Assembly (NCBI GenBank): GCA_030602705.1
Contig: JAUVZF010000005.1
Span: 2,663 to 66,662 of the forward strand
Reading direction: 5' to 3'
DNA: 64,000 bases
DNA from: Planctomycetota bacterium
GTDB taxonomy: Bacteria > Planctomycetota > Phycisphaerae > FEN-1346
Position 1 is the first letter of the stretch, and the number at the start of each line of letters is the position of its first letter. A model generated the notes under the pieces. It was not told where the DNA came from and did not search any database. It saw only the letters and a list, made by a program, of their open reading frames with translations. This document shows, piece by piece, positions 11,471 through 60,588 of the stretch. A program made the translations under genes and the position numbers.

Positions 11471-11499
11471 GCAGCGCGAGTGCCGCGCGACCGAGTTCC

Positions 11500-24946: not shown

Positions 24947-25018
24947 CGCAGCCACCTCCTTATCTGTAGCCTGTCTGCTCTTGTCCGACAACGCGCCGGG
25001 CAGAACTCCGAGGCCAAT

Positions 25019-29627: not shown

Positions 29628-29880
29628 GGATGGCCTCCTTCGGCTCCGGTGTTCTGCGGGCGCGTTCCCATGCGCGGATGTTCTCATCCCACTGGGTGAA
29701 TATGCCGTAGTTGAGCATGGTTTCCATGCCGGCCAGGGCCGCCCGCAGTTTCACGCCCAGCAGCGGAATGCCCGCCACCGAAATGACGACGTCGGCGTCG
29801 ATGATCAGTCCCTTTTCCAGGACGCGATCCAGCAGATCGACGAGTGTCGCTTTCGCCGCGAATTCGGGAACGTCGTTCAT
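29620..29880 (-). CDS. Gas vesicle protein of the GvpA/J/M family (GvpJ-like).
   Basis: ATLVDLLDRVLEKGLIIDADVVISVAGIPLLGVKLRAALAGMETMLNYG matches the GvpA-family core LxDxLDRxLDKGxVIxAD...GIELL. Confidence 0.8.
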   Translation of the reverse strand: MNDVPEFAAKATLVDLLDRVLEKGLIIDADVVISVAGIPLLGVKLRAALAGMETMLNYGIFTQWDENIRAWERARRTPEPKEAIRA

Positions 29881-31241: not shown

Positions 31242-31634
31242 TTAGGCCTTCATCGCCTCCGCGCTGATCCAACCGCACCACGGGCAGCCCTGCTCGATCA
31301 ATTCCGTACGCGCCATGCGCTTGCCGCACTGCGGGCAGGTGTCCTTGGCCTCCATTGCGTCCTTCCATGCTGGCGTCTGGAGGTTGGTGCCGGAGGGGAA
31401 CTCAAGGCCGTACTGGGCGGCGGTCTCAAACGATGCCAGCGCCGCCCGGATCCTGATGCCCAGCAGTTCCACGCCGACAAGGTCAATCGTGATATCGGCG
31501 TTGATCACGAGGCCCTTGTCGAGGATACGGTCAACGAGATCGACAAGGGTGCCGCCCTGTCGCTGGGGGGCCTGTTGCTGGAGGGCCTGTTCAGGAGCCA
31601 CGAATTCTCCTTCCCTTCGCCTTGGCAAGCGCAA
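31242..31634 (-). CDS. GvpA/J-family gas vesicle protein fused to a C-terminal C4 zinc ribbon.
   Basis: GvpA-family core [48 protein letters not shown], then ...CPQCGKRM...CPWCGW at the C-terminus. Confidence 0.7.
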   Translation of the reverse strand: MRLPRRREGEFVAPEQALQQQAPQRQGGTLVDLVDRILDKGLVINADITIDLVGVELLGIRIRAALASFETAAQYGLEFPSGTNLQTPAWKDAMEAKDTCPQCGKRMARTELIEQGCPWCGWISAEAMKA

Positions 31635-32625
31635 CCATTTCCCTGCCGAGATCGGTGGTGTGGTATCGGCGTCCCCCTAGCGCGGCCAGAAGCCCCTTGT
31701 CGCACAGTTTCTTGCGCAGCATTTGCACGTAGCCGTCGGTCAGACGGGTACGGTACGGGACATTGGGGGCCTGGCCGGCGTCTTCCGCCTCACAGTAGGC
31801 TCGGAGGACCTGTAGTTCCGTGGCGGTGGGTGACGCCCGCGTTTGAGGGGCCCCGCCGGTGTCCGAACGGTGTGGAGTGACCACGCCCTTGCCTTTGCAC
31901 CCCTTACAGTACAAGTTAGTACCGGGCTCTTTGCCCCTTCCCCGACAGGTGGCGCACGTGATCGCCCCCTCATCAACCTCGACGTATCCGCGCCCTCGGC
32001 AGACCAGACAGGTCACATAGTTCCTGGCCTCTTTCGAACCGCGGCCCTTGCAGAAAGCGCACACGACCACAGGCGGCTTAAGCACGATCGCTCCCGTGCC
32101 GTGACAGACGGGACACCTGGTGCCGGCCGGGCGTTCGCCCTTGCCCTTGCAGAAGGAGCAAAGCAGGTGGCTCTCGTACAAGAGTTCAGCCGGCCCCGAA
32201 GTCCACTTCTTGACAGTGCCCTTTGGGCTGGACCCGCCACTGCCGGCCACCCTGATCGCATTCCACAGATCAGGTTCTTGGCCCGGCTTTGCAAAGGACC
32301 TGGCTTGCGGCGAGCGACGAACGCCACGGCCCATAACCTTCCAGGGCTCGCCTTCCCGGAAGGAGACGGGCTGGGCCCCTGTGTCACCGCCGGCGGGCGC
32401 CAGCACATCCCCATTGCCGCCAACCGCCTGTTTACCTTTTTGGGTGACACAGAATCCCCGATTGGGCTTGAAAGCCACATAATCGGCCTTGACGAGGTCG
32501 ATGCACAGCCCGAGGGCCTCTTCGACGGTCGTACCGATTCTCTCGCTGACAGCGCCCGTGGATGCATGTCCATCCAACGCAGCCACGGCCTCCAGTGCTT
32601 GTTGTTCGATCGTGCTCGCACTCAT
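31591..32625 (-). CDS. wHTH, DnaJ-type zinc-finger repeats, wHTH three-part protein.
   Basis: N-terminal wHTH, central CSFCKGKGE/CPVCHGTGA/CAFCKGRGS/CLVCRGRGY/CATCRGRGK/CKGCKGKGV, and C-terminal ...TDGYVQMLRKKLCDKGLL. Start probably at MSASTIEQ with SD GGGAGA. Confidence 0.6.
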   Translation of the reverse strand: MSASTIEQQALEAVAALDGHASTGAVSERIGTTVEEALGLCIDLVKADYVAFKPNRGFCVTQKGKQAVGGNGDVLAPAGGDTGAQPVSFREGEPWKVMGRGVRRSPQARSFAKPGQEPDLWNAIRVAGSGGSSPKGTVKKWTSGPAELLYESHLLCSFCKGKGERPAGTRCPVCHGTGAIVLKPPVVVCAFCKGRGSKEARNYVTCLVCRGRGYVEVDEGAITCATCRGRGKEPGTNLYCKGCKGKGVVTPHRSDTGGAPQTRASPTATELQVLRAYCEAEDAGQAPNVPYRTRLTDGYVQMLRKKLCDKGLLAALGGRRYHTTDLGREMVALAKAKGRRIRGS

Positions 32626-32739
32626 GTTTACCGTCTCCCTTGCCATGAGGTGTTGGCTCAGTTCCAGGCTGACTTGGGCCGGTTTTCATCGGCGCCGCGA
32701 GGCTGCAACGGCCCGCGTGCCGCGTTCGGCCGCGGCGGT

Positions 32740-33018
32740 TTATTCTGCGGCAGCCTCGTCTGCCCGCGCGCGCCTTGCCCTTTGTTCTGCTTGCAGTTCT
32801 CGGACCTTCGACCGCCAGGTTTCGCGAGGGACGTCCGGTTCGTCGTCCGTCTCCTTTCCGGTCCGTGTGCCCGTAAAATGCTCTATAGGCGACTCGCGCC
32901 CTGTTGAATAGCGGATCCTGCCGTAGCGCCTGTTTTTCCGCTGATACCGCCTCAGTTCGTCCCAGTCCATGCCCGTGGACTTCTTGACCTTTGACTTTCT
33001 ACCGATCGAGTACCTCAT
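32740..33018 (-). CDS. Small 'YSTG'-motif protein (92 aa), paralog of 34305..34556.
   Basis: MRYSIGRKSKVKKSTGMDWDEL...RIRYSTGRESPIEHFTGTRTG aligns with MKYSTGKSGRVLHSTGTEWDEV...RVRYSTGRDSRMLHFTGTMTG. Confidence 0.5.
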   Translation of the reverse strand: MRYSIGRKSKVKKSTGMDWDELRRYQRKNRRYGRIRYSTGRESPIEHFTGTRTGKETDDEPDVPRETWRSKVRELQAEQRARRARADEAAAE

Positions 33019-33060: not shown

Positions 33061-33753
33061 CTACTCGTCAGGCACATACTGAATCTTGGTTCCACAGTTG
33101 TGACACGCTACTTTCTTCCCGCTGAGAGGAAGTGAAACGATCTCGTCACATGTGGGACAGTATTCCCAAGACTTGCCTTCAACGGGCTCTCGATCGATTG
33201 GTTTGCCAGCCTTCAAACCTCGTCTTCCCCGCACCGGGACAGGCCTGTAGGGCTTGATGGGGACAGGGGTGTAAGGCTTGATGGGGACCGGCGTGTAGTC
33301 CTTGATGGGCACCGGCTTGTAGGGTTTGAGCGGCGCCGGCGTATAGTCCTTGAGGGGGGCCGGCCTATAGTCCTTGAGCGGCGCCGGCCTATAGGGCTTG
33401 AGCGGCGCCGGGGTGTAGGCCTTGGGAGGGACAGGCTTGTAGGGCTTAGGCGGCACCGGCGTGTAGTCCTTGACAGGGACAGGCTCGTAAGGCTTAAGCG
33501 GCACCGGTGTATAGTCCTTTAGCGGGGCTGGCGTGTAGTCCTTCAGAGGGGCGGGCTTGTAAGGCTTAAGCGGCACTGGCGTGTAGTCTTTGAGTGGGAC
33601 CGGCTTGTAAGGTTTAGGCGGCACTGGCCTGTAGGGCTTTAACGCCACCGGCCTGTAGGGTTTGGACGAACCCGGCGACGGTGTCCGCTTTGTAGTTGAA
33701 GGTTGATGACGGCTGTCGGTCCGCATGTTAATCTGCTTTCCTGTGAGGGGCAA
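33061..33753 (-). CDS. Proline-rich octapeptide-repeat protein (about 25 copies of KPYxPVPLK/DYTPxPLK) with a C-terminal zinc ribbon.
   Basis: The protein is dominated by P-x-P-L-K-(D/P)-Y-(T/K) octads. The DNA shows the matching 24-bp periodicity at 33200-33700. C-terminus CPTCDEIV...CHNCGTK. Confidence 0.6.
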   Translation of the reverse strand: MPLTGKQINMRTDSRHQPSTTKRTPSPGSSKPYRPVALKPYRPVPPKPYKPVPLKDYTPVPLKPYKPAPLKDYTPAPLKDYTPVPLKPYEPVPVKDYTPVPPKPYKPVPPKAYTPAPLKPYRPAPLKDYRPAPLKDYTPAPLKPYKPVPIKDYTPVPIKPYTPVPIKPYRPVPVRGRRGLKAGKPIDREPVEGKSWEYCPTCDEIVSLPLSGKKVACHNCGTKIQYVPDE

Positions 33754-34304: not shown

Positions 34305-34556
34305 TCACCAAGGGAACCGCTCTTGCCGACTTTCGTTTTCATCCCTGACGTCGGGCTTGGGCCGGGGCTCAGGTTCGTCCTCGTCCTCAGGGGGCTCATA
34401 GCCCGTCATTGTGCCCGTGAAATGCAGCATGCGCGAGTCGCGGCCCGTTGAATAGCGGACCCTGCTATTGCGCTTCTTCTTTTGTCGTTCCACTTCATCC
34501 CATTCGGTACCCGTTGAATGGAGTACTCGTCCGCTTTTTCCGGTGGAGTATTTCAT
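34305..34556 (-). CDS. Small 'YSTG'-motif protein (83 aa), paralog of 32740..33018.
   Basis: See the paralog alignment above; acidic C-terminal tail. Confidence 0.5.
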   Translation of the reverse strand: MKYSTGKSGRVLHSTGTEWDEVERQKKKRNSRVRYSTGRDSRMLHFTGTMTGYEPPEDEDEPEPRPKPDVRDENESRQERFPW

Positions 34557-34645: not shown

Positions 34646-35101
34646 TCAGTACTCCATTGGCATTCGCTGCCATTTGCCGCGCTTGCCCTTCCGCGTTCTC
34701 GGAAATCCGCGAACGTTCATGCGCTCCTGGAGCGTCGAGACGATCACGGGGCCTCGCCAGCGGATCGCCAGCCATCGCAGCGTGCCGGTGCCTGCAAGTT
34801 TAATCGCCACGTGGCTGTTGGGGGCAAAGCACGTGTCCGTAAGGAGTTTGTCCCCAAGGCAGATACAACCGTCCTCGATCGCGAACCGACCGGTCGCCAA
34901 AACACACTCGAATATGCTCAATGCCGGCACGAAGCCGATTCGAAAAACAAAAAGGTACTCCTTGCGGCTGCCGCAATTCTTCAGACCCACGAGAATATAC
35001 GCCGCTTCGGTGGCATCGAGCATGCGGCAGTGTCTCCAGAGATTGCGTCCGACGTGGATACGTCCGTCGTCGTCCACCTTACTGAAGGCGCGCATCAACA
35101 T
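34646..35101 (-). CDS. Hypothetical protein with an N-terminal AbrB/SpoVT/MazE-like swapped-hairpin motif.
   Basis: MLMRAFSKVDDDGRIHVGRNLWRHC resembles the AbrB-N fold (KVDxxGRIxIP). Noticeably lower GC. Confidence 0.4.
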   Translation of the reverse strand: MLMRAFSKVDDDGRIHVGRNLWRHCRMLDATEAAYILVGLKNCGSRKEYLFVFRIGFVPALSIFECVLATGRFAIEDGCICLGDKLLTDTCFAPNSHVAIKLAGTGTLRWLAIRWRGPVIVSTLQERMNVRGFPRTRKGKRGKWQRMPMEY

Positions 35102-35109: not shown

Positions 35110-35880
35110 TTACCCCTTACGCCGTTTTCTCTTGGCAGGCGATTTTTTCTTCGCCGGCTTGGCAGTTTTCGCGGCAGGTTCTTCGCCGGCGGCCTCGATC
35201 TGCGCTTTCAGGCGGCGGAACTCGGCCTGGGTGATGTCGCCGGTCTCCAGTTTCATCCGCATGGCGAGCAGTTGCTCGGCCGCGCTCCGTTTCTGTCTTG
35301 ATGCGGCATCGCGAACGCCCTTGGCGATTCGATGCACTAAGCGCGGCCCGCCCAGCACCGGCTGGCTCAGGAACCAGGCCAGCGCGCTGATCAGGCCTAT
35401 CTCTTTGGGTCGGCCGGGGCGGAAAGGCGTGTCCCGGAACTCGGCCGGCCAGTTCGCGCCCCGGGTCCCGAAGTGCCGCGCAAGCGTAATCCGGCCTGTA
35501 ACATTCGCCGGCGACGGGAGACGCCTGCTGATCGATGCGGCGGGAAACTGGCCGGCACCCGGCAGATACCGGCAGGTACGAACCTTCGACACTGCGGCCG
35601 TGGGAGGCAAGGCCGCTGCGGCGATCGTGGGTTCGGCCTTCTTCGCGGCCGCGCGGGGTGCCGCGGCTCTGCGCGCCCCCTCGCCGTCGCCTCCGGAGGG
35701 TCTTTTCTTCGCGCGCGCGGCCTTCTTCGCGGCCGCGCGGGGGTCCACGGCGCTGCGTGCCCCTTCGCCGTCGCCTCTGGGAGGCTTCTTCTTCGCACGC
35801 GCGGTCCGCCTCGCCGCCGTGCGGGTCTTGACGTTCCTGCGGGCGGTCTTGGCGCGGTCTGTGGAAATCTTTCTGATCAT
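35110..35880 (-). CDS. Basic, low-complexity N-terminus joined to a GvpG-like C-terminal domain.
   Basis: C-terminus LISALAWFLSQPVLGGPRLVHRIAKGVRDAASRQKRSAAEQLLAMRMKLETGDITQAEFRRLKAQIEAA parallels GvpG (LLLxPVxG...W...I......LL.LQ...GEISEEEF). N-terminus is a KKA/RAA-rich repeat. Confidence 0.5.
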   Translation of the reverse strand: MIRKISTDRAKTARRNVKTRTAARRTARAKKKPPRGDGEGARSAVDPRAAAKKAARAKKRPSGGDGEGARRAAAPRAAAKKAEPTIAAAALPPTAAVSKVRTCRYLPGAGQFPAASISRRLPSPANVTGRITLARHFGTRGANWPAEFRDTPFRPGRPKEIGLISALAWFLSQPVLGGPRLVHRIAKGVRDAASRQKRSAAEQLLAMRMKLETGDITQAEFRRLKAQIEAAGEEPAAKTAKPAKKKSPAKRKRRKG

Positions 35881-37928
35881 CCTTTTCTCCCCACGTCAAA
35901 CAAGATCGACTCGATGTCCCTGAGGGCGTCCAGCCCTGCAATCGGCTGGGGCAACAGGGGCACCGAGACGACGCGCAGACCGGGATGTGCCTTGCGAAAC
36001 CTGGCCCGGTGCTGCTCCTGTACCTTTCTGGTGCGTCGGCAGAAGGCGCACCGGTTCTTGGGGATCATCTTGTTGAAGACGACCGAATGGACACCGACGC
36101 CCAGTCCGGAGAGCCGTTCGATGAGGCGCTGCGACTCGCGGACGGCCATCTTCTCGGCGACCGTCACAACGACCGATTCGGCCTGCGCGGGGTCCGTCAG
36201 GATGGCCTGAAAACGGCGCAGGCCGCGGGCCAGATCGACCATCTCCTCGCCGGCGGTGTGCCCGTACTTGAGCAATACTTTGAAGATGGCTCGCAGCCAG
36301 GCATGGGCCAGTTCAGGCAGTTCGAGAAACCGCAGCGCATGGCCGGTAGGCGCCATGTCGAAAACGAACAAGTCGTACTGCCCGCCGTCGGCCAGGTCCA
36401 TCACGCTCTTGAGGAACATGATCTCATCGACGCCGGGAGGAGAAAGCGACGCGAACTGCTGCATCGATTCCTTTTCGAACCGGACTTGCACTCCGCTGGA
36501 GGTGAGATTGTCGAAGATGCCGGTAATCGAATCGCCGTAACGCTGCCGGAAACGCTCGAACATCACCTCCGGATCCTGCTCGCAGGCGAAGAGGTTCTCG
36601 GCCGCCACGGACACGATCTCAGGACCGACGGGCGAACCGAGGCAATCGGCCAGGGAATGGGCCGGGTCCGCCGAGAACACGAGGACCCGCTTGTCGGGGT
36701 GGGCACCGGCCAGGCGCAGGCCCGTGGCGGCGGCCAGCGATGTCTTGCCCACGCCGCCCTTGCCCGCGAAGAACGTGAAACGAACGCCCTCGGTGAGCAC
36801 CAGTGGTTCGCCCGGCTTGCACCGGACGGGACGCGTCTCCTTCCCTTGCTTTGGCACCGATCGGACGAACGGATTGACCGAGGTAGGTTCGTCGGCGAGG
36901 CCCTCCAGCACGCCCACAACGCGGTTCAGGCCCTCTTTGCCGTGCACCTCGCCGGCAAACAAGGGGACAGGCAGCAATTTCCGGGGTGACAGCGCCGTCG
37001 TAGCGGCGAGCACCGATGATTGCCAGTGATTTCTGGCGGCACAGAACGCACACTTGGCCGGCTCGACCAACTGATTCACGATCAGTCGTTTTACATGGAT
37101 TCCCAGAGCGGCCAGTTCTTGCAGAAGGCGCTCTGTCTCGGCAAGGGCCATCGGCTCGGCGATCGTCACCGGAACGAATTCCGCCCGGTCACGCGCCGTG
37201 AACATTTGCCTGGCCCTCTCAATCCTCCGATCAAAGTTGATCAGGAACCGCTCCGCGGCGTCAACCGGCGGACGCTTCCGACCGCGGAAATGACGTTTCA
37301 GATAGCGGAACTTGCGCTGCATGATGTCCAGGGCCTTCAGCCAGCGCTTCATCTCCCCCGGCATGGTCAGGAAGCACAGCGCGTGCCCGGTCGGCGCGGT
37401 GTCCACCAGGATTAAACCCCATTGGCCCTCGTCCAGCAGGCGTGCGATCTCCACGACCGCCATCACCTCGTCCACGCCCGGAAGCGTCAGGTCGAAGAAG
37501 CCATCGATGTCGGAGCGGTCCAGGAGCGTCCCCCGATCGAGCAGGGTGCGCAAGGCTTCGCCGTTCTCCCTGGCAAAGGCGTCCGCCAGGCTCGCCGCGT
37601 CGAGTTCCATCGCCCACAGGCCGTCGGCGCCCCGGACGGGAACCGCCTCCGCGCCGACGGTCTGGCCGAGGCTGTCGGCCAGCGAGTGGGCCGGGTCGAC
37701 AGACAGGACGAGAATCCTGCGACCGTCGCGCGAGGGGCGGCGGGCGATGGCGAGTGCGGCGGCGGCTGCCAGCGTCGTCTTGCCCACACCGCCCTTGCCG
37801 CCGAAGAACACGAGTTGTGCCCCGGCCCATTCGTCGAGAAACCCCTTCGGCGGGGCGACCTGCGGCCGCGCTGCCGGCGGCCGCGCCGGCGGCGCCGTCG
37901 GGATCGCTTGTGCCATGGACACAGCCAA
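35877..37928 (-). CDS. ArsA/Get3-family ATPase, internally duplicated into two halves.
   Basis: Two P-loops (FFGGKGGVGKTTLAAAAALA and FFAGKGGVGKTSLAAATGLRLA), two DPAHSLAD(S/C)LG motifs, and two A-loops (VDTAPTGHALCFL, FDMAPTGHALRFL). Confidence 0.8.
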   Translation of the reverse strand: MAVSMAQAIPTAPPARPPAARPQVAPPKGFLDEWAGAQLVFFGGKGGVGKTTLAAAAALAIARRPSRDGRRILVLSVDPAHSLADSLGQTVGAEAVPVRGADGLWAMELDAASLADAFARENGEALRTLLDRGTLLDRSDIDGFFDLTLPGVDEVMAVVEIARLLDEGQWGLILVDTAPTGHALCFLTMPGEMKRWLKALDIMQRKFRYLKRHFRGRKRPPVDAAERFLINFDRRIERARQMFTARDRAEFVPVTIAEPMALAETERLLQELAALGIHVKRLIVNQLVEPAKCAFCAARNHWQSSVLAATTALSPRKLLPVPLFAGEVHGKEGLNRVVGVLEGLADEPTSVNPFVRSVPKQGKETRPVRCKPGEPLVLTEGVRFTFFAGKGGVGKTSLAAATGLRLAGAHPDKRVLVFSADPAHSLADCLGSPVGPEIVSVAAENLFACEQDPEVMFERFRQRYGDSITGIFDNLTSSGVQVRFEKESMQQFASLSPPGVDEIMFLKSVMDLADGGQYDLFVFDMAPTGHALRFLELPELAHAWLRAIFKVLLKYGHTAGEEMVDLARGLRRFQAILTDPAQAESVVVTVAEKMAVRESQRLIERLSGLGVGVHSVVFNKMIPKNRCAFCRRTRKVQEQHRARFRKAHPGLRVVSVPLLPQPIAGLDALRDIESILFDVGRKG

Positions 37929-37932
37929 GGGA

Positions 37933-38262
37933 TCAGCCTCCCCCTTTGAGGACGGGGATGAAGCCGCGCGAAACGGTCCTGGACACGGCCCTGAGGCCGG
38001 CCTCGGAAAGCACGTAGGTCTTTACCTTTGGAAGGGTCTTTATGGGCGAGGGGCCGCGGCCAGGGGCTGCTTCAGAGCCGCCCCTGATGTGGGCTCCGGT
38101 GTTCGCCTGTTTATGGCACCGGAGATAGCCGTCCTCGACCAGGACCTGGCACGCGGCCTCTACCTTGGAGGCTTGCATGCAGATTCGCCGGGCGATACTG
38201 ACCGCCCTGGCCTTTCGGAGTTCGCGCACGACGCTGAGTATCTGTTTCTCAATGCCTTTCAA
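37933..38262 (-). CDS. Small wHTH protein of the cluster family.
   Basis: ARRICMQASKVEAACQVLVEDGYL. Weaker match to the family motif. Confidence 0.45.
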   Translation of the reverse strand: MKGIEKQILSVVRELRKARAVSIARRICMQASKVEAACQVLVEDGYLRCHKQANTGAHIRGGSEAAPGRGPSPIKTLPKVKTYVLSEAGLRAVSRTVSRGFIPVLKGGG

Positions 38263-38687
38263 GGGACTACCCTCCCTCCGTCTCCGATTGCGCCCGCAAC
38301 CGCCCGGGCGTCGGCCTGGGGCGGCTCTGCTGAACCCGTGGTCCAGAGGCGGTATTTCTCTTGTGGGGAAAGCGGCTTCTGATCATCGCTCCGGCTGTCG
38401 GCATCTTGGGATCCGCCGTGGCCGGGCTTCCCGGCGTCGGCCCCTTCGGAAGCCTCCGGCGGCACTGCGGGTTCGGGCGCGGCTTTGCGCAGAGCGGCCA
38501 TGCCCTTTTCGGTGAGCCTGACCCGGCCGTTTCTGAACACGTCCACGTAGTCGCTCATTCCCAGGCCGCGGCAGACAATTCGGGCATAGTCGGAACTCAT
38601 CTTGATCTGGGCGGCGATGGCCGAGACCGACGCTTCGCCGCCTTTTTTTCGCACGGCTTTCAGGACTTCAAGTTCGGTTCCTCCCAC
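38259..38687 (-). CDS. wHTH protein of the cluster family with an acidic disordered tail.
   Basis: VSAIAAQIKMSSDYARIVCRGLGMSDYVDV. Confidence 0.5.
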   Translation of the reverse strand: MGGTELEVLKAVRKKGGEASVSAIAAQIKMSSDYARIVCRGLGMSDYVDVFRNGRVRLTEKGMAALRKAAPEPAVPPEASEGADAGKPGHGGSQDADSRSDDQKPLSPQEKYRLWTTGSAEPPQADARAVAGAIGDGGRVVP

Positions 38688-38696
38688 GACAGCCTC

Positions 38697-38882
38697 CTAC
38701 TTGGTTGTCCTGGTGGTGAAGTGACGGCCCTTGCGGAAAAGTTTCTTGTGCCATACCAGGTCGCGGCAGATCTGTTCGGCGTAGTCCGGTGAGATTCCCA
38801 TCTGACGTCCGATCGTCGCGGGGGATGCGCTTCCGCCCCCTTTGTTAATCGCCTTGAGTACTTCCTGTTCTCGACTGGTCAT
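38697..38882 (-). CDS. Small wHTH protein of the cluster family.
   Basis: Start at MTSREQEVL after GGAGAAGGGAGG. Motif PATIGRQMGISPDYAEQICRDLVWHKKL. Confidence 0.55.
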   Translation of the reverse strand: MTSREQEVLKAINKGGGSASPATIGRQMGISPDYAEQICRDLVWHKKLFRKGRHFTTRTTK

Positions 38883-38981
38883 CTCAGTCCTCCCTTCTCC
38901 TCGTTCTTGCGGCGCGATGGCGTGCTCGCAGCGACTGGAATCGTGTGCGAGCACGCCTGGCGCCTGTTCGCCACTTGCGGA

Positions 38982-39152
38982 CTACCGCACGTCTAGTGGC
39001 TGGTACTTGCCCAGGGTCTTTTCGTACCCGGCGTGCGTGGCCAGGCAGGCCTTGCGCCGTTCCTTGAAGACGCCGGCATCGGCCTTTAGCCGAGCCTTCG
39101 ACTTCGCGGCGTACTCCCTGGACGTGGCCCTCTGCTTGTCCATGTAAGCCAT
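38982..39152 (-). CDS. Unlisted small basic ORF (56 aa), MAYMDKQRATSREYAAKSKARLKADAGVFKERRKACLATHAGYEKTLGKYQPLDVR.
   Basis: Preceded by GGAGGTGAGGAAC. Hand-translated; falls below the ORF-track length cut-off. Confidence 0.3.
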   Translation of the reverse strand: MAYMDKQRATSREYAAKSKARLKADAGVFKERRKACLATHAGYEKTLGKYQPLDVR

Positions 39153-39168
39153 GTTCCTCACCTCCTTT

Positions 39169-39238
39169 CTTTGGGCCCAAAGTGTTCTCTATCTCAAACA
39201 GTCGGGCTGGGCGTGGCCTAACCGGTGTTGCCACGCCC
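39169..39238. promoter_or_regulatory. Perfect 14-bp palindrome CTTTGGGCCCAAAG (39169-39182) followed by an inverted repeat GGGCGTGGC-N12-GCCACGCCC (39209-39238). Possible operator or terminator-like structure between ArsA-like gene 2 and the small ORF.
   Basis: Read from the sequence. Confidence 0.3.
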
Positions 39239-39262
39239 TTTGCGGGCAACGGCCTTTCCCGG

Positions 39263-41560
39263 TCACCGATTCTCCTCTTCCAGCAGGACTTCCTCCCGTG
39301 GTGCGTCTGACAGACCGTGTCTGAACCGTCGTGGCGGCGGCTTTCTTGGCGGATGCGCCTCAAGAACCGGACGTTGCCATGCACGCTCGTGATGATGGCC
39401 GGCGTGAGTCGGGCAAGGCGGGGCATCGGCCGCGCCGCCGCCGTAGAGTTCGGCGCCCATGCGGTCGAGGGCGTCCGGTCCCCGCACCTCTTGAGGAAAC
39501 TGGCGGACCGCCGTTACGACGCAGCCGATGGACGAGGCGAAGTCGGCGATCTCATCGACGCAAGCGAGTTGCTGGCACCGTTTGGCGGCGCAGAACGCGC
39601 AGTCCGTCGCGGGCGCCAGGAAGTTGCAGACGATGCGTGCTACGGGGATTCCGGCCGCCGTCACCGTCTCGAGCATCCGCTGCATCTCGAGTTTGCCCAT
39701 GGCCTCGGCGATCGTGACGGCGACCAGTTCCGTTTGGGCCGGGTCGGTCAGGGCGGCGTGCATCGTCTTGACGGCGTTGGTTGAGCGCACCATTCGCTCC
39801 GCAAGCGTGGCCAGGTGCTCGACGGGGCGCCTCTGTTGGTACTTGAGGATGGCCCGGTAGGTTACACGGAGCCAATCCTTGATTAGTTCCGGGAAGGCCA
39901 GGAGTTTGAGCATGTGCCCGGTGGGCGCCGGGTCGAGCACGTAGAGGTCGAACCGGTCGGCCTCGGTGAAGTCAAAGAGACGCTCCATCACGAGCACTTC
40001 CTCGACGCCCGGCGGGTAACTCTTGACGTACTCGAGCAGGGTGCCGCGGTCGAACTTGATCCGGTCCAGGTTCATGACGCCGATTTCGTGGCTTTCCCAG
40101 GCCTCGAAGGCGGCGTTGATGTTCTCGACGTACTCGGCACGGAACTTCTCGTAGAGCGCCGCGGCGTCCAGTTCCAGCGCGGTCAGGTTGTCGCGGCCGG
40201 GAACCGCGGTCAGGGAGTCGCCGATCTCCAGGTCGAGCGAGTCTCCGAGCGAATGCGCCGGGTCGGTCGAGACCACGAGAACTCGCTTCTCGGGGTAACG
40301 CCGCGCCAGGCGCAGCGCGGTGCTTGCCGACACGGACGTCTTGCCGACGCCGCCCTTGCCGGCGAAGATGAGGAACCGTTTGCCCGCTTCCACGGCCAGT
40401 TCGCTGGGAGGGGCGATTGAGCCGGACACGCTCACGCGGTTCGGCCCGGCCGGCTGCGGGGGCATCGGCTGCACGGAATCATTCTCGCCGGCCAGGACCT
40501 GGCCGTAGCGCACCAGGGCTTCCTGTCCGCGTATCTCTTCGGGGGAAAGTGGAACCTGGAGGATGCGGCGGGGAGCGAACTGCTCCTGAATCTGCTTCAG
40601 ATACGGCGTTTGCCCTTCCGCCTGCGACCGGCAGAAGGGGCAGTCCGGGTCGGCACGTCGCACGCGGTTGACGATCACGTTGCCGGCGGCAATGCCCTGG
40701 CGGTCGAGCGCCCGGGCGAGGCGCACCGTCTCGGCGACGCCCATCTCCTCGGGGATGGTCACCATGACGAACTCGCATCGCGCGGGGTCGGTGAGGAGTT
40801 TCCCGACAAACTCCATGTGCTTAATCAATTTGCTCAGGAACTGCGGCACTCCCCGTCCGCCCCTTTCCTGGCCGGGAATATTGAACAGACCCAGGCCCTG
40901 CAGGCCGGCCGAGGTCCGGTGATACTTGTTGAACGACCTCTTGAAGAGCGTGACCCAGCGAGCGTATTTTTCGGGCATCGTCAGCAGCCGCAGAGTGTGG
41001 CCCGTCGGCGCGGTGTCGATGACCACCAGGTCGCAGCGTGTGGAGGGGAGCGGATCGTGCGGGATGCCGCGCTGCAAGTACTCCGCCACGGCGGCGAAGA
41101 TCATCAGGTCTTCCATGCCGGGCAGACGGAAGGCGAGGAAATCGCGGATATCCGCCTGGTTGGAGAAGACGGTGCCGCGGGCCATTTGCTTGAGGTGCTT
41201 GCCGTACCTGCGTTTGAAGGTCGCCAGCAGGGAGGGCGGATCGACCTCGACCGCCGAGAGGTTGGGGACACCGCGCACGCGAACGATCTTCGGCCCCACG
41301 GACTGGTCAAGACTGTCGCCGAGCGAGTGGGCCGGATCGGTCGACATGATCAGCACCTGGCGGTCGGGCATGGCTTGGACCAGGCGCAGAGCGGTGGCGG
41401 CCGACGAGGTCGTCTTGCCGGTTCCACCCTTGCCGCCGAAGAACAGCAGTTGCAGAGAAGACGGGGCGCTCAGGAAACTCGGCGCCGCCTGCTTGCCGCC
41501 GCTATCCTGCTGGACAGCCTGTTGCTGTGTGGCTTCGGCTAGTAACGCTTGCGCGCTCAT
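39263..41560 (-). CDS. ArsA/Get3-family ATPase, internally duplicated (second paralog, 765 aa).
   Basis: FFGGKGGTGKTTSSAATALRL / STDPAHSLGDSL / IDTAPTGHTLRLL in half 1, and FAGKGGVGKTSVSASTALRLA / STDPAHSLGDSL / LDPAPTGHMLKLL in half 2. Confidence 0.8.
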   Translation of the reverse strand: MSAQALLAEATQQQAVQQDSGGKQAAPSFLSAPSSLQLLFFGGKGGTGKTTSSAATALRLVQAMPDRQVLIMSTDPAHSLGDSLDQSVGPKIVRVRGVPNLSAVEVDPPSLLATFKRRYGKHLKQMARGTVFSNQADIRDFLAFRLPGMEDLMIFAAVAEYLQRGIPHDPLPSTRCDLVVIDTAPTGHTLRLLTMPEKYARWVTLFKRSFNKYHRTSAGLQGLGLFNIPGQERGGRGVPQFLSKLIKHMEFVGKLLTDPARCEFVMVTIPEEMGVAETVRLARALDRQGIAAGNVIVNRVRRADPDCPFCRSQAEGQTPYLKQIQEQFAPRRILQVPLSPEEIRGQEALVRYGQVLAGENDSVQPMPPQPAGPNRVSVSGSIAPPSELAVEAGKRFLIFAGKGGVGKTSVSASTALRLARRYPEKRVLVVSTDPAHSLGDSLDLEIGDSLTAVPGRDNLTALELDAAALYEKFRAEYVENINAAFEAWESHEIGVMNLDRIKFDRGTLLEYVKSYPPGVEEVLVMERLFDFTEADRFDLYVLDPAPTGHMLKLLAFPELIKDWLRVTYRAILKYQQRRPVEHLATLAERMVRSTNAVKTMHAALTDPAQTELVAVTIAEAMGKLEMQRMLETVTAAGIPVARIVCNFLAPATDCAFCAAKRCQQLACVDEIADFASSIGCVVTAVRQFPQEVRGPDALDRMGAELYGGGAADAPPCPTHAGHHHERAWQRPVLEAHPPRKPPPRRFRHGLSDAPREEVLLEEENR

Positions 41561-41578: not shown

Positions 41579-42484
41579 CTATGCGCCACGCAGGGCCGTC
41601 CACCGCAGGCCGTTCTCCCAAGCGTCTGACGGCACCGGAGCGGAGGCGGTGGCCGGCGGCCGGTCCACCTGGTTCTGTTCGAGGGCTTCAGGTCCGGCAG
41701 TACGGTCATCTTTCTCTACAGTCTCGATCCCGCCCCGCTTGCGAACTACCTGCAAGCCGGTGTCGGTGATCTGACATCTGCGGGAGCCGGCTCCGCGCAA
41801 CAACCCCTTCTTGATGAGCGACTTCTGGAGCAGGTTGACGTACGCTGGTGTGTGGCGGGCTTCCCTGGACAGAACAATCCGTTCGCCGAGAGACGCACGG
41901 GCGTAAAGTCGCAGGATCTCCAGTTCGCTCGCGAGGACGGCCGGGAGGTGGGCGGCAGTCGAACCCGCCGCGACCCTTCTGGCCGCCGCGCTCGCGGTGG
42001 CCGCTCTACGGTTGCCGGTTGAAGGCTGCTCGCCTATGCGGAAGGTAAAGGCAGGCCGCGGCACCCGTCCCCCGACCGACACGGCTTTTGTCTCTTCGCC
42101 CCGCGGCTTCACGCTCACGACGCCGGCGCCGCGGCAGGCGATGCACGTCAGGCGCGAGCCTTGCTGTCGGCCCGTGCCGCGGCAAGATGCACACTTCTCC
42201 ACGGGCGGCTTAACCGTGACGTAACCTTTGCCGCGGCAGGCGTTGCAGGTGACGTTGCCTCGGGGTCGTTCTTCGCCTCGGCCCTTGCAGAGGGCACACC
42301 TGACGGCCGGCGGACGGATCTCGACCGTGCCTTTGCCCCGGCACACCGAGCACTTCGAGCCGGCCGGCTTCTCGCCCTTGCCCCGGCAGAAGGCGCAGGC
42401 CTGAACGGGGTCCTCGATGATCGCATAGGCCGCGCCGGTTCCCCGGCTGCTGTCTTTGTCGTCCTTCACTGGACGCCATTGCAT
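41579..42484 (-). CDS. DnaJ-type zinc-finger repeat protein with a C-terminal wHTH.
   Basis: CAFCRGKGE/CSVCRGKGT/CALCKGRGE/CNACRGKGY/CASCRGTGR/CIACRGAGV, then ...PAYVNLLQKSLIKKGLL. Start at MQWRPV after GGAGG. Confidence 0.6.
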   Translation of the reverse strand: MQWRPVKDDKDSSRGTGAAYAIIEDPVQACAFCRGKGEKPAGSKCSVCRGKGTVEIRPPAVRCALCKGRGEERPRGNVTCNACRGKGYVTVKPPVEKCASCRGTGRQQGSRLTCIACRGAGVVSVKPRGEETKAVSVGGRVPRPAFTFRIGEQPSTGNRRAATASAAARRVAAGSTAAHLPAVLASELEILRLYARASLGERIVLSREARHTPAYVNLLQKSLIKKGLLRGAGSRRCQITDTGLQVVRKRGGIETVEKDDRTAGPEALEQNQVDRPPATASAPVPSDAWENGLRWTALRGA

Positions 42485-42619
42485 GATGTGGCCTCCGCAC
42501 AATCCGGCGATCCTCTCCGGCGGGGCATGGCAGGTCCGGCACAGGCCGGTTGGTCAGGCCTGGAGCGGTCCCGCCGTCACGGCCTGTCCGCGCTATGCCA
42601 ACCATCCAGCCGGAGGCGG

Positions 42620-42895
42620 CTACTCTTCGACGAGGGCAACCGCGGTGTCGATGCGCTTCCGCAGTCCGGTCCGCTTGAATCCCGCGACGTTGCCATTGTC
42701 GTCGAGGACGACGTCGTAGGTGGCGAGGATGTCCATGCCGTCGGGCAGTGAGTGCTTCTCGACCACGTCGATCGAGACGCGCCATCCTTCGCCTTCGCGG
42801 TTGGCGGAGAGCGTGCTTCCGAGTTCCAGCCCCGTCAACGAGGCCAACTCGCTACGGGCGGCCTCAACGATGTCAGCCATTCCCATTCCTGCCAT
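42620..42895 (-). CDS. gvpO: Gas vesicle protein GvpO.
   Basis: GEGWRVSIDVVEKHSLPDGMDILATYDVVLDDNGNVAGFKRTGLRKRID matches the GvpO core (..GW.a.vEvvE...vPDtqDilg.Y.v.lDd.G.v.gy.R...Y.R.D). Confidence 0.7.
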   Translation of the reverse strand: MAGMGMADIVEAARSELASLTGLELGSTLSANREGEGWRVSIDVVEKHSLPDGMDILATYDVVLDDNGNVAGFKRTGLRKRIDTAVALVEE

Positions 42896-42936
42896 TGCGA
42901 TTCACTCCTTTCGTTGGATTGCTGTCGGTGCGGCCC

Positions 42937-43152
42937 TTAGCGGACCGTTTGCTCCTGCTCGATGCGCGTCTCGATGCGCGTCCCGCACTTGGGGCAGAAC
43001 GCGTAGTCCGCCTCCCAGTACCGCCATTCTTGGCCACACTCGGGGCACCCGACGTGCAGGCTGAGGCCGCACTCGGGGCAGTTGTCAAAATTGCCTATTG
43101 TCGTGGCCCCGCACCGGGGACATTTGAACGCTCCTGTCGCTTGGTTACCCAT
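42937..43152 (-). CDS. Small double zinc-ribbon protein (71 aa).
   Basis: CPRCG...CPECG...CPECG...CPKCG. Confidence 0.5.
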   Translation of the reverse strand: MGNQATGAFKCPRCGATTIGNFDNCPECGLSLHVGCPECGQEWRYWEADYAFCPKCGTRIETRIEQEQTVR

Positions 43153-43190
43153 TTCGATAGACTCCTTGTGTTTGGTGCCCGCCCGGCCCC

Positions 43191-43439
43191 CTAAACGGGG
43201 GCGCCTTCTTCCTTGAGTTTTCGGATGCGTTCGATCTCCTCGAGCAGGTCGGCCTCTCGCCGCTCGTACTCCTCCTCGGAGACCTCGCCTAGTTCGAGGC
43301 GCATCTGGAGTTCGAGCAGTTGCTGTCGGACCGAGTTTTCGTCGGTCATCTCCGCGTACGCGGCTTCCCCGAGCTTCTTGGAGACCCAGACCGGGACCCT
43401 GATTGGCGCGAGCAAGATGTCGTCTAGCACGAAAGCCAT
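43191..43439 (-). CDS. gvpG: Gas vesicle protein GvpG.
   Basis: MAFVLDDILLAPIRVPVWVSKKL...QLLELQMRLELGEVSEEEYERREADLLEEIERIR is the GvpG pattern. Confidence 0.75.
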   Translation of the reverse strand: MAFVLDDILLAPIRVPVWVSKKLGEAAYAEMTDENSVRQQLLELQMRLELGEVSEEEYERREADLLEEIERIRKLKEEGAPV

Positions 43440-43452
43440 AGGTCCTCTCGCA

Positions 43453-44205
43453 TCATTCCCAGGTCACCACGACCTCAACGAAGTTCAGGGGGGGAATCGG
43501 GCCGACGTACTTGAGGCGCACCCGGCCGTTCGTTTCGCCCTCCAGCGCCTCGACGCACCCGTCGAACTCCTGCTCGTGCCTGCGTTCCACGAGGAACGAC
43601 GCGTTGAGGATCATGGGGTCGCCGAAGACGTCGTTCACTTTGCGGTCGAACCAATGGCCGTCGAAGCGGCGGAGGATGTGCCTGGCTTCCCTGGCTTTCT
43701 TGCGCTCGAGGGCGTTCTTGACCATCTCTCCAAGGCGGACGCCGTCGGCCGGCGTGACGGCTGTGCGGCTGCTGGCGTGGGCGCGGGCGGCCTTGATGCG
43801 GGGGTTTTCGTCGACGATTTCGGCGAAGATGGCCGGCATGTCGGTCCACAGGACTTTGAGGCCCAGTTCGGCCTTGTCCGCCACCATTTCGAGCAGATCG
43901 CACAACTCGTCGTGTCGGGCGAGCAGGACTTTCTCAACGATCTGGTCCCGATGGTTGGCAATGCAGCCAAAGCGGACCGGCAGCATCGGCCAGCGCGCCA
44001 TCGCCGCCTCCATGACGCGCTGGTGCGCGATCACGCTGGCGCGGGCCACGTCGTAGCGGTCGGCCTTGCAGCGGCTGACAACGGCGGCGATATCGCCGTG
44101 CGGCAGCATCTCGACCGGCTCGCCGTTTCCATCGATGCCGGGCACGTCCAGGACGGCCGGTTCGGCTGTGCCGACGATGGCGTAGATGTAGAATCCCCCT
44201 TCCAT
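43453..44205 (-). CDS. gvpF: Gas vesicle protein GvpF/L family.
   Basis: FYIYAIVGTAEP...AAVVS..., VLPVRFG, and C-terminal YVGPIPPLNF. Confidence 0.8.
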   Translation of the reverse strand: MEGGFYIYAIVGTAEPAVLDVPGIDGNGEPVEMLPHGDIAAVVSRCKADRYDVARASVIAHQRVMEAAMARWPMLPVRFGCIANHRDQIVEKVLLARHDELCDLLEMVADKAELGLKVLWTDMPAIFAEIVDENPRIKAARAHASSRTAVTPADGVRLGEMVKNALERKKAREARHILRRFDGHWFDRKVNDVFGDPMILNASFLVERRHEQEFDGCVEALEGETNGRVRLKYVGPIPPLNFVEVVVTWE

Positions 44206-44207
44206 CG

Positions 44208-45227
44208 CTAGGGCGCCTCCACCGGTTCGACGAGCAGGACCTCGGGGCGGTCGGTGTCGCGAAGGTCGAGTCCTTGCGGCGGGCAGAAACGCTTGAGGAG
44301 GTCCGCCGCCGCCTTGACGCGTTCGAACTTCTGCGGGAGGTTAGGGTCTGCGGGATCGGTGTCCGGATGAAAGCGGCGCATGGCGGACCGGGCGGCATCC
44401 GCCACCATCTGCGGGGTGATGCGTTCCGCCAAGTCGATCTCGCGCCGGGCCGCATCCAGGTCAGCCACCCGCGCACGATGCAACTGGACCGTGGTGAAAC
44501 TGTACGGCGGCAGTGGGCCGACGATGCGGAAGTTCAGGGCGCCCTGTTCCTGCCGGTCGGCTTCTGCGACCCGGGCTTCGAGCCGGTCACGCCCCTCGGC
44601 ATTAACCAGGAAGGCCGCGTTGATGATCATGGCCTCGTGGCGGGTCTGGTGCCGGACGGTCCGGCGCGCCACCTGTTCCCACTGCGGCAGGATGCGGTCT
44701 TCGAGGGCACGCTTCCTGTCATCGAGGCGGTCCTTGACGAGTTTGCCCAGGCCCAACCGTTCGGCCATCGACCGGCCGGGCGGGAGTTCGGCAATCCGGT
44801 TCTTGTGTTCCACGATGTCTTCTTCGCGGCCTATCTCCCGGAACACCTGCTGGATGTCCGGCCACATGGCCACCACGTCGATTTCGATCAGGCCGTCGAC
44901 TTCGGCGAGCAAAGCCTGCAGGTTGTCGCGGTTGGTCCGGAGCATCTCGGCCACCTGGACCTCGCTGTCAAGCACGGTTCCGAACTTCATAGGCAAGACG
45001 GTATGGCCGGCGTTCATAACCGTCTCAGAAACGAACTGGTGCTGGGCCAGGTGCCTGGCCAGTTCCTCCTTCGGCACCGAGGTGACGTCGCCGTTGCCGG
45101 TGTCGCTGACGACGGCGGCAATGCTGCCGTAGGCGATGCTATGGACGCTGGTCGCCTCGCCACCGACGCCGATCGGCCCGAAATCGGCGGATGCGCCGTC
45201 CGCGATGAATCCGTAGGTGTACTTCAT
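44208..45227 (-). CDS. GvpF/L-family protein fused to a C-terminal J-domain (Hsp70 co-chaperone module).
   Basis: GvpL core (YTYGFIADGA...IAAVVSD...LPMKFGTV...IVGPLPPYSF) followed by RREIDLAERITPQMVADAARSAMRRFHPDTDPADPNLPQKFERVKAAADLLKRF, which contains the J-domain HPD motif. Compare ...AYRKLAMKYHPDRN...KFKEIKEAYEVL. Confidence 0.75.
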   Translation of the reverse strand: MKYTYGFIADGASADFGPIGVGGEATSVHSIAYGSIAAVVSDTGNGDVTSVPKEELARHLAQHQFVSETVMNAGHTVLPMKFGTVLDSEVQVAEMLRTNRDNLQALLAEVDGLIEIDVVAMWPDIQQVFREIGREEDIVEHKNRIAELPPGRSMAERLGLGKLVKDRLDDRKRALEDRILPQWEQVARRTVRHQTRHEAMIINAAFLVNAEGRDRLEARVAEADRQEQGALNFRIVGPLPPYSFTTVQLHRARVADLDAARREIDLAERITPQMVADAARSAMRRFHPDTDPADPNLPQKFERVKAAADLLKRFCPPQGLDLRDTDRPEVLLVEPVEAP

Positions 45228-47419: not shown

Positions 47420-47535
47420 GACGACTTTCCTGTTGCTCTCCCGCCGCTCGCCCGGTAGGCGCACGCCGCGGATGGGTATGCCGGCGCCGTCGCTTGCGTT
47501 CCTCGAGCCCGCCGCCTCAGGAGACCGGCAGTAAC

Positions 47536-48126: not shown

Positions 48127-48200
48127 GGTTCGATTCCTCTCTCGGTTTGTCGGCCCGGCGCCGCTTCCGATTGCGGAGGGTCTGCCCCGCGGCGCCTTGT

Positions 48201-60514: not shown

Positions 60515-60588
60515 GTGGATTCCCCCGGCCCCGTGAGTAAAGGTCCAGGTGCGGCCGGGTCGGCCGGCACGGGACAAGGAGAAGCGAC

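Follow-up and report, generated by a model that had tools for sequence, protein, structure and literature searches.

What two relatives of an arsenite pump ATPase might do inside a gas vesicle operon is the question raised by the locus described here. The locus lies in a 64,000-nucleotide stretch of a Planctomycetota genome (assembly GCA_030602705.1, contig JAUVZF010000005.1, positions 2,663 to 66,662), referred to below as the window. Two of its genes, called ArsA1 and ArsA2 after their products, stand inside an operon on the same strand as the gas vesicle (gvp) genes and are translationally coupled to their neighbours. Their motifs, profile scores and alignment positions point to gas-vesicle-dedicated members of the Get3-like branch of the ArsA/Get3 family. 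We propose, with a probability of about 0.5, that they may act as ATP-driven clamps chaperoning or delivering hydrophobic Gvp segments during vesicle assembly.

Two fused nucleotide-binding halves in each protein

Both open reading frames lie exactly where a preliminary description of this DNA had placed them:

35877-37928, minus strand: ArsA1-type fused Get3-like ATPase, 683 residues, TTG start, two PF02374 stretches
39263-41560, minus strand: ArsA2-type fused Get3-like ATPase, 765 residues, ATG start, PF02374 at 426 bits

Each chain contains two homologous nucleotide-binding halves, seen both as PF02374 stretches and in a pseudo-dimer structure model. A Pfam search recovers this family (ArsA_ATPase) twice per protein and at full length, with E = 8e-127 and 7.9e-128. 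The halves of ArsA2 extend over approximately residues 30-360 and 390-710, followed by a low-complexity tail. Its sequence is identical to public protein P0122, and the 683-residue product of ArsA1 is identical in public gene calls (P0125). The TTG start of ArsA1 lies 8 nt downstream of a Shine-Dalgarno sequence, GGGGGAGG, which is itself located within the 3' end of the preceding gene (winged-helix protein 3 below). The two paralogues share 37% identity.

Family motifs recur in all four halves, in agreement with the earlier reading of two complete ArsA/Get3 domains per protein. The P-loop GKGG(V/T)GKT occupies residues 44-51 and 389-396 of ArsA1 and residues 43-50 and 401-408 of ArsA2. DPAHS lies at residues 78 and 421 of ArsA1 and at 75 and 433 of ArsA2, and D(T/M/P)APTGH at 176 and 524 and at 182 and 543, respectively. 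The last motif had been named an A-loop, but it is actually the ArsA signature, or switch II motif. Every half combines a deviant Walker A motif carrying the signature lysine with the switch I aspartate and switch II. Across 244 relatives, retrieved with the ArsA1 and ArsA2 queries together, neither half shows any change in the signature lysine, the P-loop lysine or the aspartates of switch I and switch II, and the switch II histidine of the N half is retained in 242. Since these catalytic residues are conserved in both halves, both nucleotide sites of each protein look catalytic.

Get3-like features and predicted structure

The TIGR00345 model, which covers GET3, ArsA and TRC40, scores 419 bits for ArsA1 and 422.8 bits for ArsA2 against a cut-off of 135. 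Among solved structures, the best sequence matches are ArsA1 of Chlamydomonas reinhardtii (CrArsA1; 5zme, 3e-63 and 2e-55) and then the archaeal Get3 structures 3zq6 and 3ug6. With archaeal and eukaryotic Get3 the window proteins share the P-loop, both switches, a long insert after switch II and a CxxC motif that occupies the equivalent place in the alignment. Single-domain chains of Get3 assemble into homodimers or tetramers, whereas the halves in the window are fused and diverged. The preliminary description had suggested looking for the CxxC motif, and it occurs in all four halves:

40631-40642, minus strand: CPFC, CxxC of the ArsA2 N half (residues 307-310), cysteine in 244/244 relatives
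39590-39601, minus strand: CAFC, CxxC of the ArsA2 C half (residues 654-657), cysteine in 243/244 relatives with a gap in the remaining one
37041-37052, minus strand: CAFC, CxxC of the ArsA1 N half (residues 293-296), assigned by alignment with the Get3 CxxC
36039-36050, minus strand: CAFC, CxxC of the ArsA1 C half (residues 627-630), assigned by alignment with the Get3 CxxC

All four align exactly with the zinc-binding CxxC of Get3 from Methanocaldococcus jannaschii, Methanothermobacter thermautotrophicus and Giardia, and their cysteines are conserved in 243-244 of the 244 relatives. The resulting four-cysteine site is predicted to lie at the interface between the halves, where it would form a zinc hinge that ties them together.

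The segment after switch II, known as the Get3 insert, was also checked. It measures 70-83 residues in the N halves and 61-70 in the C halves, compared with 73-82 in Get3 and 59 and 44-50 in ArsA. Hence, it is Get3-sized in the N halves, and in the C halves, where it is about 10 residues shorter, it is intermediate between Get3 and ArsA. The helical subdomain is of Get3 size and comprises approximately 102 residues, 45-48% of them hydrophobic, against 68-80 residues and 39-40% in ArsA. Its hydrophobicity exceeds that of both ArsA and Get3, and it is rich in aromatic residues (about 10%) instead of methionine.

An AlphaFold2 model of ArsA1 is a pseudo-dimer (pLDDT 85, pTM 0.85). In Foldseek, the whole length of this model matches closed ArsA and CrArsA1, and its single halves match client-bound Get3. 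The match to closed ArsA has E = 1e-30 and a target-normalised TM-score of 0.76, and the scores of the single halves against Get3 are 0.72-0.81. CrArsA1 offers the closest architectural parallel, since there, too, one chain joins two Get3-like halves into a pseudo-dimer and the helical subdomains are enlarged (5zme/5zmf). In that monomeric protein, which carries tail-anchored proteins (PMC11170914), swapped helices join the halves and CxxC is lacking, whereas the window proteins keep the motif in both halves. CrArsA1 also differs in being eukaryotic and in having clients bound for a lipid membrane. The combination of fusion with a retained double CxxC is distinctive for the gas vesicle clade, because CrArsA1 is the only characterised fused Get3.

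Separation from ArsA and origin of the fusion

The fused two-domain fold and the DTAPTGH signature are also those of ArsA from ars operons (Escherichia coli R773, 1f48; Leptospirillum ferriphilum, 9nbl). In a half-domain alignment, the arsenite-binding residues C113, C172 and C422 are cysteine in 26/26 true two-domain ArsA proteins, none of which carries CxxC. ArsA1 and ArsA2 have glycine at the C113 and C422 positions, within a Get3-like P-G-x-D/E-E motif, and no cysteine at C172. The glycine is kept in 242/244 relatives at the first position and in 239/244 at the second, and no cysteine occurs at C172 among the gas-vesicle-clade halves sampled in the smaller half-domain alignment. Larger helical subdomains and the lack of an ArsB, Acr3 or ArsD partner further set the window proteins apart from ArsA of ars operons.

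Curated models for ArsA agree with this picture. The ArsA equivalog TIGR04291 gives 204.4 bits for ArsA1 and 222.8 for ArsA2 against a cut-off of 650, and NF041417 gives 237.5 and 231.8 against 800. Other branches of the fold were considered as well. Membership of NosAFP was rejected at 83-86 bits (cut-off 325), that of BagB at 67-145 bits (cut-off 521) and that of BagA at 66-85 bits (cut-off 400). Get3d/NosAFP and mycobacterial BagA/BagB belong to the same fold family, but they are single-domain proteins; an Hsp20-like domain is part of Get3d-type proteins, and a separate Hsp20 is encoded in the island. Curated scores and motifs together ruled out an ordinary ars operon, ParA/MinD, Mrp/NBP35, BagAB and NosAFP.

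The trees are based on 159 aligned half-domains, among them those of the 26 true two-domain ArsA proteins, archaeal Get3, one Giardia Get3, CrArsA1 (N and C halves alike) and L. ferriphilum ArsA. Sequences of the references were copied from Protein Data Bank alignments and comprise the aligned regions only; trees were built by neighbour-joining with Kimura distances. The N and C halves of ArsA split from everything else with 97% bootstrap support, and both gas vesicle halves fall outside. With a core taxon set, the gas vesicle clade is recovered at 53%, its N halves at 69% and its C halves at 93%, with N and C as sister groups. Because the two ArsA halves group together to the exclusion of the gas vesicle halves, the internal duplication of the gas vesicle ATPases appears to be separate from that of ArsA, a conclusion to which the trees lend moderate support.

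Phylogenetic placement had been put forward as a check on the family assignment, and one part of it held. The proteins stand outside ArsA, but a clade uniting them with archaeal Get3 was not recovered (0-3% bootstrap). We therefore claim from the tree only the exclusion from ArsA and no specific sister group. Within the gas vesicle clade, an ArsA2-type group has moderate support (56-70%); an ArsA1-type orthologue clade was tried and dropped at 0-5%.

Linkage to gas vesicle genes across genomes

A genome collection was scanned by P-loop and DPAHS patterns, which yielded at least 80 ArsA/Get3 loci, mostly distant, that served as a control set. The Gvp proteins of the window were then searched against these loci within 10 kb. 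Among the matches listed, gvp genes lie near 12/13 gas-vesicle-clade ATPases and near 0/67 other ArsA/Get3 loci. The 12 loci with gvp genes belong to Anaerolineales, Dehalococcoidales, several acidobacterial lineages, Labilithrix (Myxococcota), Gemmatimonadaceae, Rokubacteria and Chlorobiaceae, whose member is single-domain. Among the same matches the sole exception within the clade is a gene of Lyngbya sp. HA4199-MV5 (locus L009, 9926-12037), which has no gvp gene within 10 kb and lacks CxxC in both halves; it adjoins a CDC48-type gene on the opposite strand. The clade is thus widespread and occurs almost only with gvp operons. Together with the family scores, these counts bear out the preliminary view of ArsA/Get3-family ATPases dedicated to the gvp locus.

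Seven further contigs were fetched through close homologues. Five of them carry gvp clusters of the extended type (L001, L002, L085, L086 and L087), one has a gvpF/L fragment beside the gene (L003), and one, of 5.8 kb, is too short to tell (L084). The order gvpF/L-gvpG-(gvpO)-arsA recurs across phyla in ten loci (L001, L002, L006, L008, L010, L011, L014, L030, L085 and L086). Both paralogues occur together in six contigs, namely the window, L001, L084, L002 (Thermodesulfovibrionales), L085 (Actinomycetota) and L086 (Bacteroidota), so that the named examples outside the window span three phyla. Comparison of the hit lists of both queries suggests at least two further contigs with the pair.

A putative ATP-driven clamp for vesicle proteins

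By analogy with Get3, we infer client capture, client identity, coupling to ATP and a hand-over step as follows. Each ATPase is a single chain with two complete nucleotide sites and would form a pseudo-dimer with a CxxC zinc hinge and two facing, enlarged helical subdomains rich in hydrophobic and aromatic residues. On binding of ATP the clamp would shut and create a composite groove of hydrophobic character, in which a segment of a vesicle protein that is hydrophobic and prone to aggregate could be shielded. The beta-hairpin core of GvpA/J/M-type proteins and the hydrophobic N-terminal helix of GvpG-type proteins are candidate clients. Hydrolysis of ATP, triggered at the assembly site, a nucleation or growth complex of GvpF/L, G, K and J, would reopen the clamp, and the client would be passed on. 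As for the paralogues, each may serve clients of its own, or they may jointly form an equivalent of the Get3 tetramer. As measured by the 19-residue Kyte-Doolittle mean, the most hydrophobic segments of the island are the GvpA/J hairpins (1.7-2.1) and the N-terminal helices of GvpK (1.64), a further candidate client, and GvpG (1.57). A doubtful open reading frame at 34646-35101 is also among them.

Several observations weigh against this proposal. Methionine makes up about 3% of the helical subdomain, compared with 9.4% in archaeal Get3, where the groove is methionine-rich, and 6% in Giardia Get3. The island encodes no tail-anchored protein and no C-terminal transmembrane anchor; none of its hydrophobic segments lies within about 25 residues of a C terminus, and the GvpA hairpin ends 26 residues short of it, although clients may be encoded elsewhere in the genome. 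No homologue of a Get1/2-like (WRB/CAML) receptor was recognised in the locus, so that the tail-anchored client and membrane receptor of Get3 were both not found there. Gas vesicles are a protein shell without a lipid membrane. To our knowledge, the best-studied gvp clusters (Halobacterium, Bacillus megaterium and Serratia) have no such gene and still make vesicles, and the function would hence be accessory or lineage-specific. In the trees, support for the gas vesicle clade and for its N and C halves drops to 10-40% when divergent members are added. Moreover, for all members the function is read from sequence, context and one predicted structure.

The targeting or insertion role in shell assembly that the preliminary description had suggested is an inference only. 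Of this suggestion, the dedication to gvp stands. Literal insertion of the Get3 kind does not, as vesicles hold no lipid and no Get1/2-like receptor is evident; the locus encodes no tail-anchored protein, and the subdomains are not methionine-rich. A holdase or hand-over role fits better.

Alternative explanations

Four other accounts of the two ATPases can be set against the proposed clamp. That they are ordinary ArsA subunits of an arsenite or antimonite efflux pump, located in the gvp island by chance, would accord with their two-domain architecture and ArsA-like overall fold, with L. ferriphilum and E. coli ArsA as the top Foldseek matches, and with the public labels of their relatives ('arsenite-transporting ATPase' or 'ArsA family ATPase'). 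The preliminary description had named the cysteine triad and nearby ars genes as signs of an ordinary ars operon, and neither was found. The triad is absent, the ArsA models score far under their cut-offs, and the ArsA clade excludes the window proteins. Nor was any ArsB, Acr3, ArsR, ArsD or ArsC seen among the approximately 60 window open reading frames scanned with Pfam, a set from which ten small or doubtful ones were left out. Judged by motifs and scores, ArsA1 and ArsA2 are not arsenite pumps; this account, to which we give next to no credence, is refuted as far as sequence can go. A role as ParA/MinD-type positioning ATPases, which would space or anchor vesicles in the cell and not assemble them, appears improbable. 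Other bacterial organelles are positioned by ParA-like ATPases, and the deviant Walker A motif with its signature lysine, typical of dimer-type ATPases, and weak matches to the CbiA, ParA and MinD models speak for it. Yet ParA_partition reaches only 45-46 bits against a cut-off of 180 and MinD 34-36 against 213, whereas the Get3/ArsA model stands at about 420 bits; the helical subdomains and CxxC are Get3 features absent from ParA and MinD, and no ParB or McdB-like adaptor partner was identified. It is highly improbable that the paired CxxC motifs bind a bridging iron-sulfur cluster or another metal, as in NifH or Mrp/NBP35-like proteins, and mature or feed two B12-binding radical S-adenosylmethionine (SAM) enzymes. 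Four invariant cysteines at a predicted inter-half interface, the two radical SAM genes of the island (25950-27308 and 20495-21901) and the overlap of such a gene with the end of an ArsA2-type gene in L002 would suit such a role. The cysteines, however, align exactly with the zinc site of Get3; the MrpORP, ApbC and NifH models reach only 15-26 bits where the cut-offs are 348-450 (MrpORP 23-26 against 450, ApbC 15 against 348); and most gvp loci with an ArsA-like gene have no radical SAM gene nearby. The MinD and MrpORP scores also answer the concern, raised at the outset, that the proteins might have an affinity to Mrp or MinD.

The remaining account, which we consider unlikely, treats the ATPases as general or stress holdases, or quality-control factors with a zinc-CxxC redox switch, working with the Hsp70, DnaJ-type zinc-finger proteins, Hsp20 and CDC48 of the island. 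Their task would be to prevent Gvp proteins from falling out of solution, or to take collapsed vesicles apart for recycling, and not to deliver subunits to the shell. The chaperones in question are as follows:

27852-29687, in the operon: Hsp70
45227-47464, in the island: CDC48-type AAA ATPase
47536-48405, in the island: Hsp20, matching Pfam ArsA_HSP20 at 28.8 bits (cut-off 22.5)

Such a chaperone-rich setting, with at least seven CXXCXGXG zinc-finger proteins in addition, favours this account, as does the invariance of the CxxC cysteines. The Hsp20 scores above the ArsA_HSP20 threshold, and the ArsA-like gene of Chlorobiaceae has an Hsp20 gene immediately upstream. Upon oxidation, yeast Get3 turns into a holdase that does not need ATP. 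The invariant ATPase residues of both halves argue instead for an ATP-driven cycle. Simpler gvp clusters carry an ArsA-like gene without Hsp70 or CDC48 (L007, L010, L011, L014, L018 and L030), which links the ATPase with the gvp core rather than with the chaperones. Nevertheless, the holdase account overlaps with the clamp proposal, and only the direction of client flow differs.

Genes between and beside the ATPases

Four small genes separate ArsA2 from ArsA1, and the operon continues on both sides:

42620-45227, minus strand: gvpF/L, gvpF/L, gvpG, zinc ribbon and gvpO block, the conserved upstream neighbour of arsA
41579-42502, minus strand: DnaJ-type CXXCXGXG zinc-finger protein with a C-terminal winged helix-turn-helix, directly upstream of ArsA2
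38982-39152, minus strand: small basic open reading frame, 56 residues, without family match, between ArsA2 and ArsA1
38697-38882, minus strand: winged-helix protein 1, 61 residues, island winged-helix family, profile match to solved domains of this fold
38259-38687, minus strand: winged-helix protein 2, 142 residues, N-terminal winged helix (island profile) and disordered tail
37933-38262, minus strand: winged-helix protein 3, 109 residues, island winged-helix family, stop 4 nt before the ArsA1 start
35110-35880, minus strand: GvpG-like protein, 256 residues, basic N-terminal region and GvpG-like C-terminal part, weak PF05120 match (residues 180-230, E = 0.001)

None of the three small open reading frames between the ATPases passes a Pfam threshold. 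A profile built from 13 paralogous modules of the island nevertheless matches solved winged-helix domains (DtxR/MntR, 6.8e-6 and 2e-5; MarR, 5.2e-5), and the winged-helix label given to three of the intervening genes, beside one small open reading frame, is thereby backed. A gene of this island family also stands between the arsA paralogues in L001 and L084 and beside arsA in L003 and L006, and homologues of the module recur in these four related gvp loci. The start codon of the GvpG-like gene overlaps the ArsA1 stop (ATGA), and a GvpG-like homologue follows an arsA paralogue in the window, L001, L002 and L085.

The winged-helix module measures about 70 residues (E-x-E-V-L ... Y-A-x-x-L-C ... 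L-T-x-K-G) and occurs in 13-14 copies in the island. Its copies lie at these sites:

17571-17822, 18349-18930, 22093-22374, 22666-23487, 24460-24684: winged-helix modules
24737-24991, 31591-32646, 37933-38882, 41579-42502, 52892-54250: winged-helix modules, continued

It forms stand-alone small proteins or is fused to DnaJ-type CXXCXGXG arrays, coiled coils or the C terminus of the GvpC-like protein. Such varied fusions suggest a role as protein adaptors over that of classic transcription factors. An extended form of the clamp proposal, which we regard as doubtful, would have paired pseudo-dimers act as the equivalent of a Get3 tetramer, enclosing the cores of GvpA-family or GvpG-type proteins for ATP-driven delivery to the protein shell, with the winged-helix proteins serving as adaptors or receptors and not as transcription factors. 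Get3 tetramers bind clients in archaea and diatoms (PMC11170914). If true, this tetramer-like arrangement would represent a bacterial Get3-type targeting pathway that ends at a non-membrane organelle.

The gas vesicle island

The gvp locus around the ATPases is genuine, as had been assumed, with many gvp families on the same strand:

15311-56465, minus strand: whole gvp island, about 40 kb, from a sigma-54 activator and gvpA through to further winged-helix and zinc-finger genes

The families comprise GvpA, a GvpC-like protein, two GvpN, three GvpF/L, GvpG, GvpO, GvpK and GvpJ/A-like proteins. Among them, gvpA occupies 54282-54557, gvpG 43191-43439 and one gvpJ/A-like gene 31242-31634. In order of transcription, the island starts with the sigma-54 activator, gvpA, a GvpC-like protein with 33-residue repeats and a DnaJ-type zinc-finger protein. 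Two gvpN genes, Hsp20, the CDC48-type ATPase, two gvpF/L, gvpG, a zinc ribbon, gvpO and a zinc-finger protein follow. The middle part holds ArsA2, the small open reading frame, the three winged-helix genes, ArsA1 and the GvpG-like gene. Beyond it are repeat proteins, a zinc-finger/winged-helix protein, gvpJ/A-like, gvpK, gvpF/L and gvpA/J-like genes. The end consists of Hsp70, a B12-radical SAM enzyme, a tetratricopeptide repeat protein and further winged-helix, zinc-finger and radical SAM genes.

The chaperone complement of the island shows several further features. ArsA_HSP20 denotes an alpha-crystallin domain known from fusions with certain ArsA/Get3 proteins. The Hsp20 gene of Chlorobiaceae (L015, 3705-4304; L016, 9370-9963) precedes a single-domain ArsA of the gas vesicle clade, and CDC48 comes next. 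At least six island proteins are for the most part arrays of DnaJ-type CXXCXGXG zinc fingers and lack a J domain:

18978-19682, 19851-20303, 23876-24385, 31591-32646, 41579-42502, 52201-52788: CXXCXGXG zinc-finger proteins

The gvpF/L gene at 44208-45227 shows a weak J-domain match at its C terminus. Together, the Hsp70, the zinc-finger proteins and this J-domain-like gvpF/L look like an Hsp70 system reserved for the vesicle; this combination of Hsp70 and zinc-finger proteins is also found in L002, L085 and L086. In the same three contigs, fusions of approximately 365 residues between a GvpA-family protein and a GRAM/Vps36-like domain lie just upstream of Hsp70 (L002, 6435-7532; L085, 17980-19089; L086, 14407-15513). 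At the corresponding place the window has a GvpA/J-like gene of 86 residues (29620-29880), whose 3' end overlaps the Hsp70 open reading frame as called. As for the two radical SAM enzymes, modification of a Gvp protein is one possibility for their substrate; the gene that overlaps the ArsA2-type gene in L002 lies at 12294-13712.

Repeat proteins form another component. The product of 33061-33753 has 230 residues, with about 20 tandem proline-rich repeats (K-P-Y-x-P-V-P-L-K-D-Y-T-P) and a terminal CxxC...CxxC zinc ribbon, and has no family match. Two paralogous open reading frames, 32740-33018 (92 residues) and 34305-34556 (83 residues), contain repeated R-Y-S-T-G-R-(D/E)-S ... H-F-T-G-T motifs and an acidic tail, and are likewise without a family match. 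The GvpC-like protein (52892-54250) combines about nine repeats of 33 residues (...AEADATVKDLAQQNVALIAEAAEEDKARAQEM...) with a winged-helix module at its C terminus; its only Pfam matches are spurious ones to coiled coils.

Genes of mobile elements border the island. One flank (9505-14604) carries a resolvase (9505-10173) and a DNA methylase of 944 residues (11770-14604), and the other (58160-62379) HTH_17, Prim-Pol and a large serine recombinase (60589-62379). The GC content is 0.58-0.66 inside the island and 0.67-0.70 at window positions 1-8000. The whole gvp cluster may be an integrative element.

Relation to earlier work and significance

The association between gvp genes and ArsA homologues is itself known. 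Castillo and Saier (2010, PMC2963123) reported that gvp operons of cyanobacteria, Bacteroidetes/Chlorobi, Acidobacteria and a delta-proteobacterium encode two-domain ArsA homologues; Nostoc/Anabaena and Chlorobi are among the organisms they list. They noted that the ArsA cysteines are missing and suggested that the ATPase supplies energy for a step in vesicle biogenesis. In cyanobacteria, phylogenetic-profile and co-evolution analysis clusters one ArsA with eight gas vesicle proteins (PMC5464585, 2017). The window proteins resemble Clusters 4 and 6 of Castillo and Saier, which contain two-domain proteins of approximately 640 residues in gvp operons with gvpF/L, G, J, K, N and hsp20; in both cases the three ArsA cysteines are missing and arsR and arsB are not nearby. 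There, however, one copy is found per cluster, whereas here two paralogues occur with winged-helix genes between them, and the cyanobacterial cluster has tryptophan at the C113 position where the present clade has glycine. PMC2963123 mentions neither Get3 nor CxxC nor zinc, and proposes no mechanism. We found no literature linking gas vesicles to Get3 or NosAFP, and none describing a chaperone-rich (Hsp70/CDC48/DnaJ) type of gvp cluster. To the published association, the present analysis adds a putative Get3-type CxxC hinge with a motif in each half, a probably separate origin of the fusion, a conserved pair of paralogues and a candidate winged-helix partner.

Annotation is one area in which these results matter. 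Hundreds of clade proteins bear the label 'arsenite-transporting ATPase' and enter metagenome surveys as arsenic-resistance genes. Genome papers, too, continue to assign the copy beside gvp to arsenic genes, as for nsp15480 of Nodularia (gvp genes nsp15380-15470). For the evolution of Get3, the clade would represent a bacterial, fused and CxxC-retaining lineage whose duplication is separate from that of ArsA. Its members occur in Chlorobi, Acidobacteria and numerous uncultivated anaerobic lineages; the literature adds cyanobacteria.

For gas vesicle biology, the question is how GvpA-family subunits, which are highly hydrophobic and tend to aggregate, stay soluble and are fed into the growing wall, and the model clusters offer little handle on it. 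An ATP-driven, Get3-type clamp encoded in the operon would be a concrete and purifiable candidate for such subunit handling. In the engineering of acoustic reporter genes, the failure of some gvp clusters in heterologous hosts may find an explanation in accessory chaperones of this kind.

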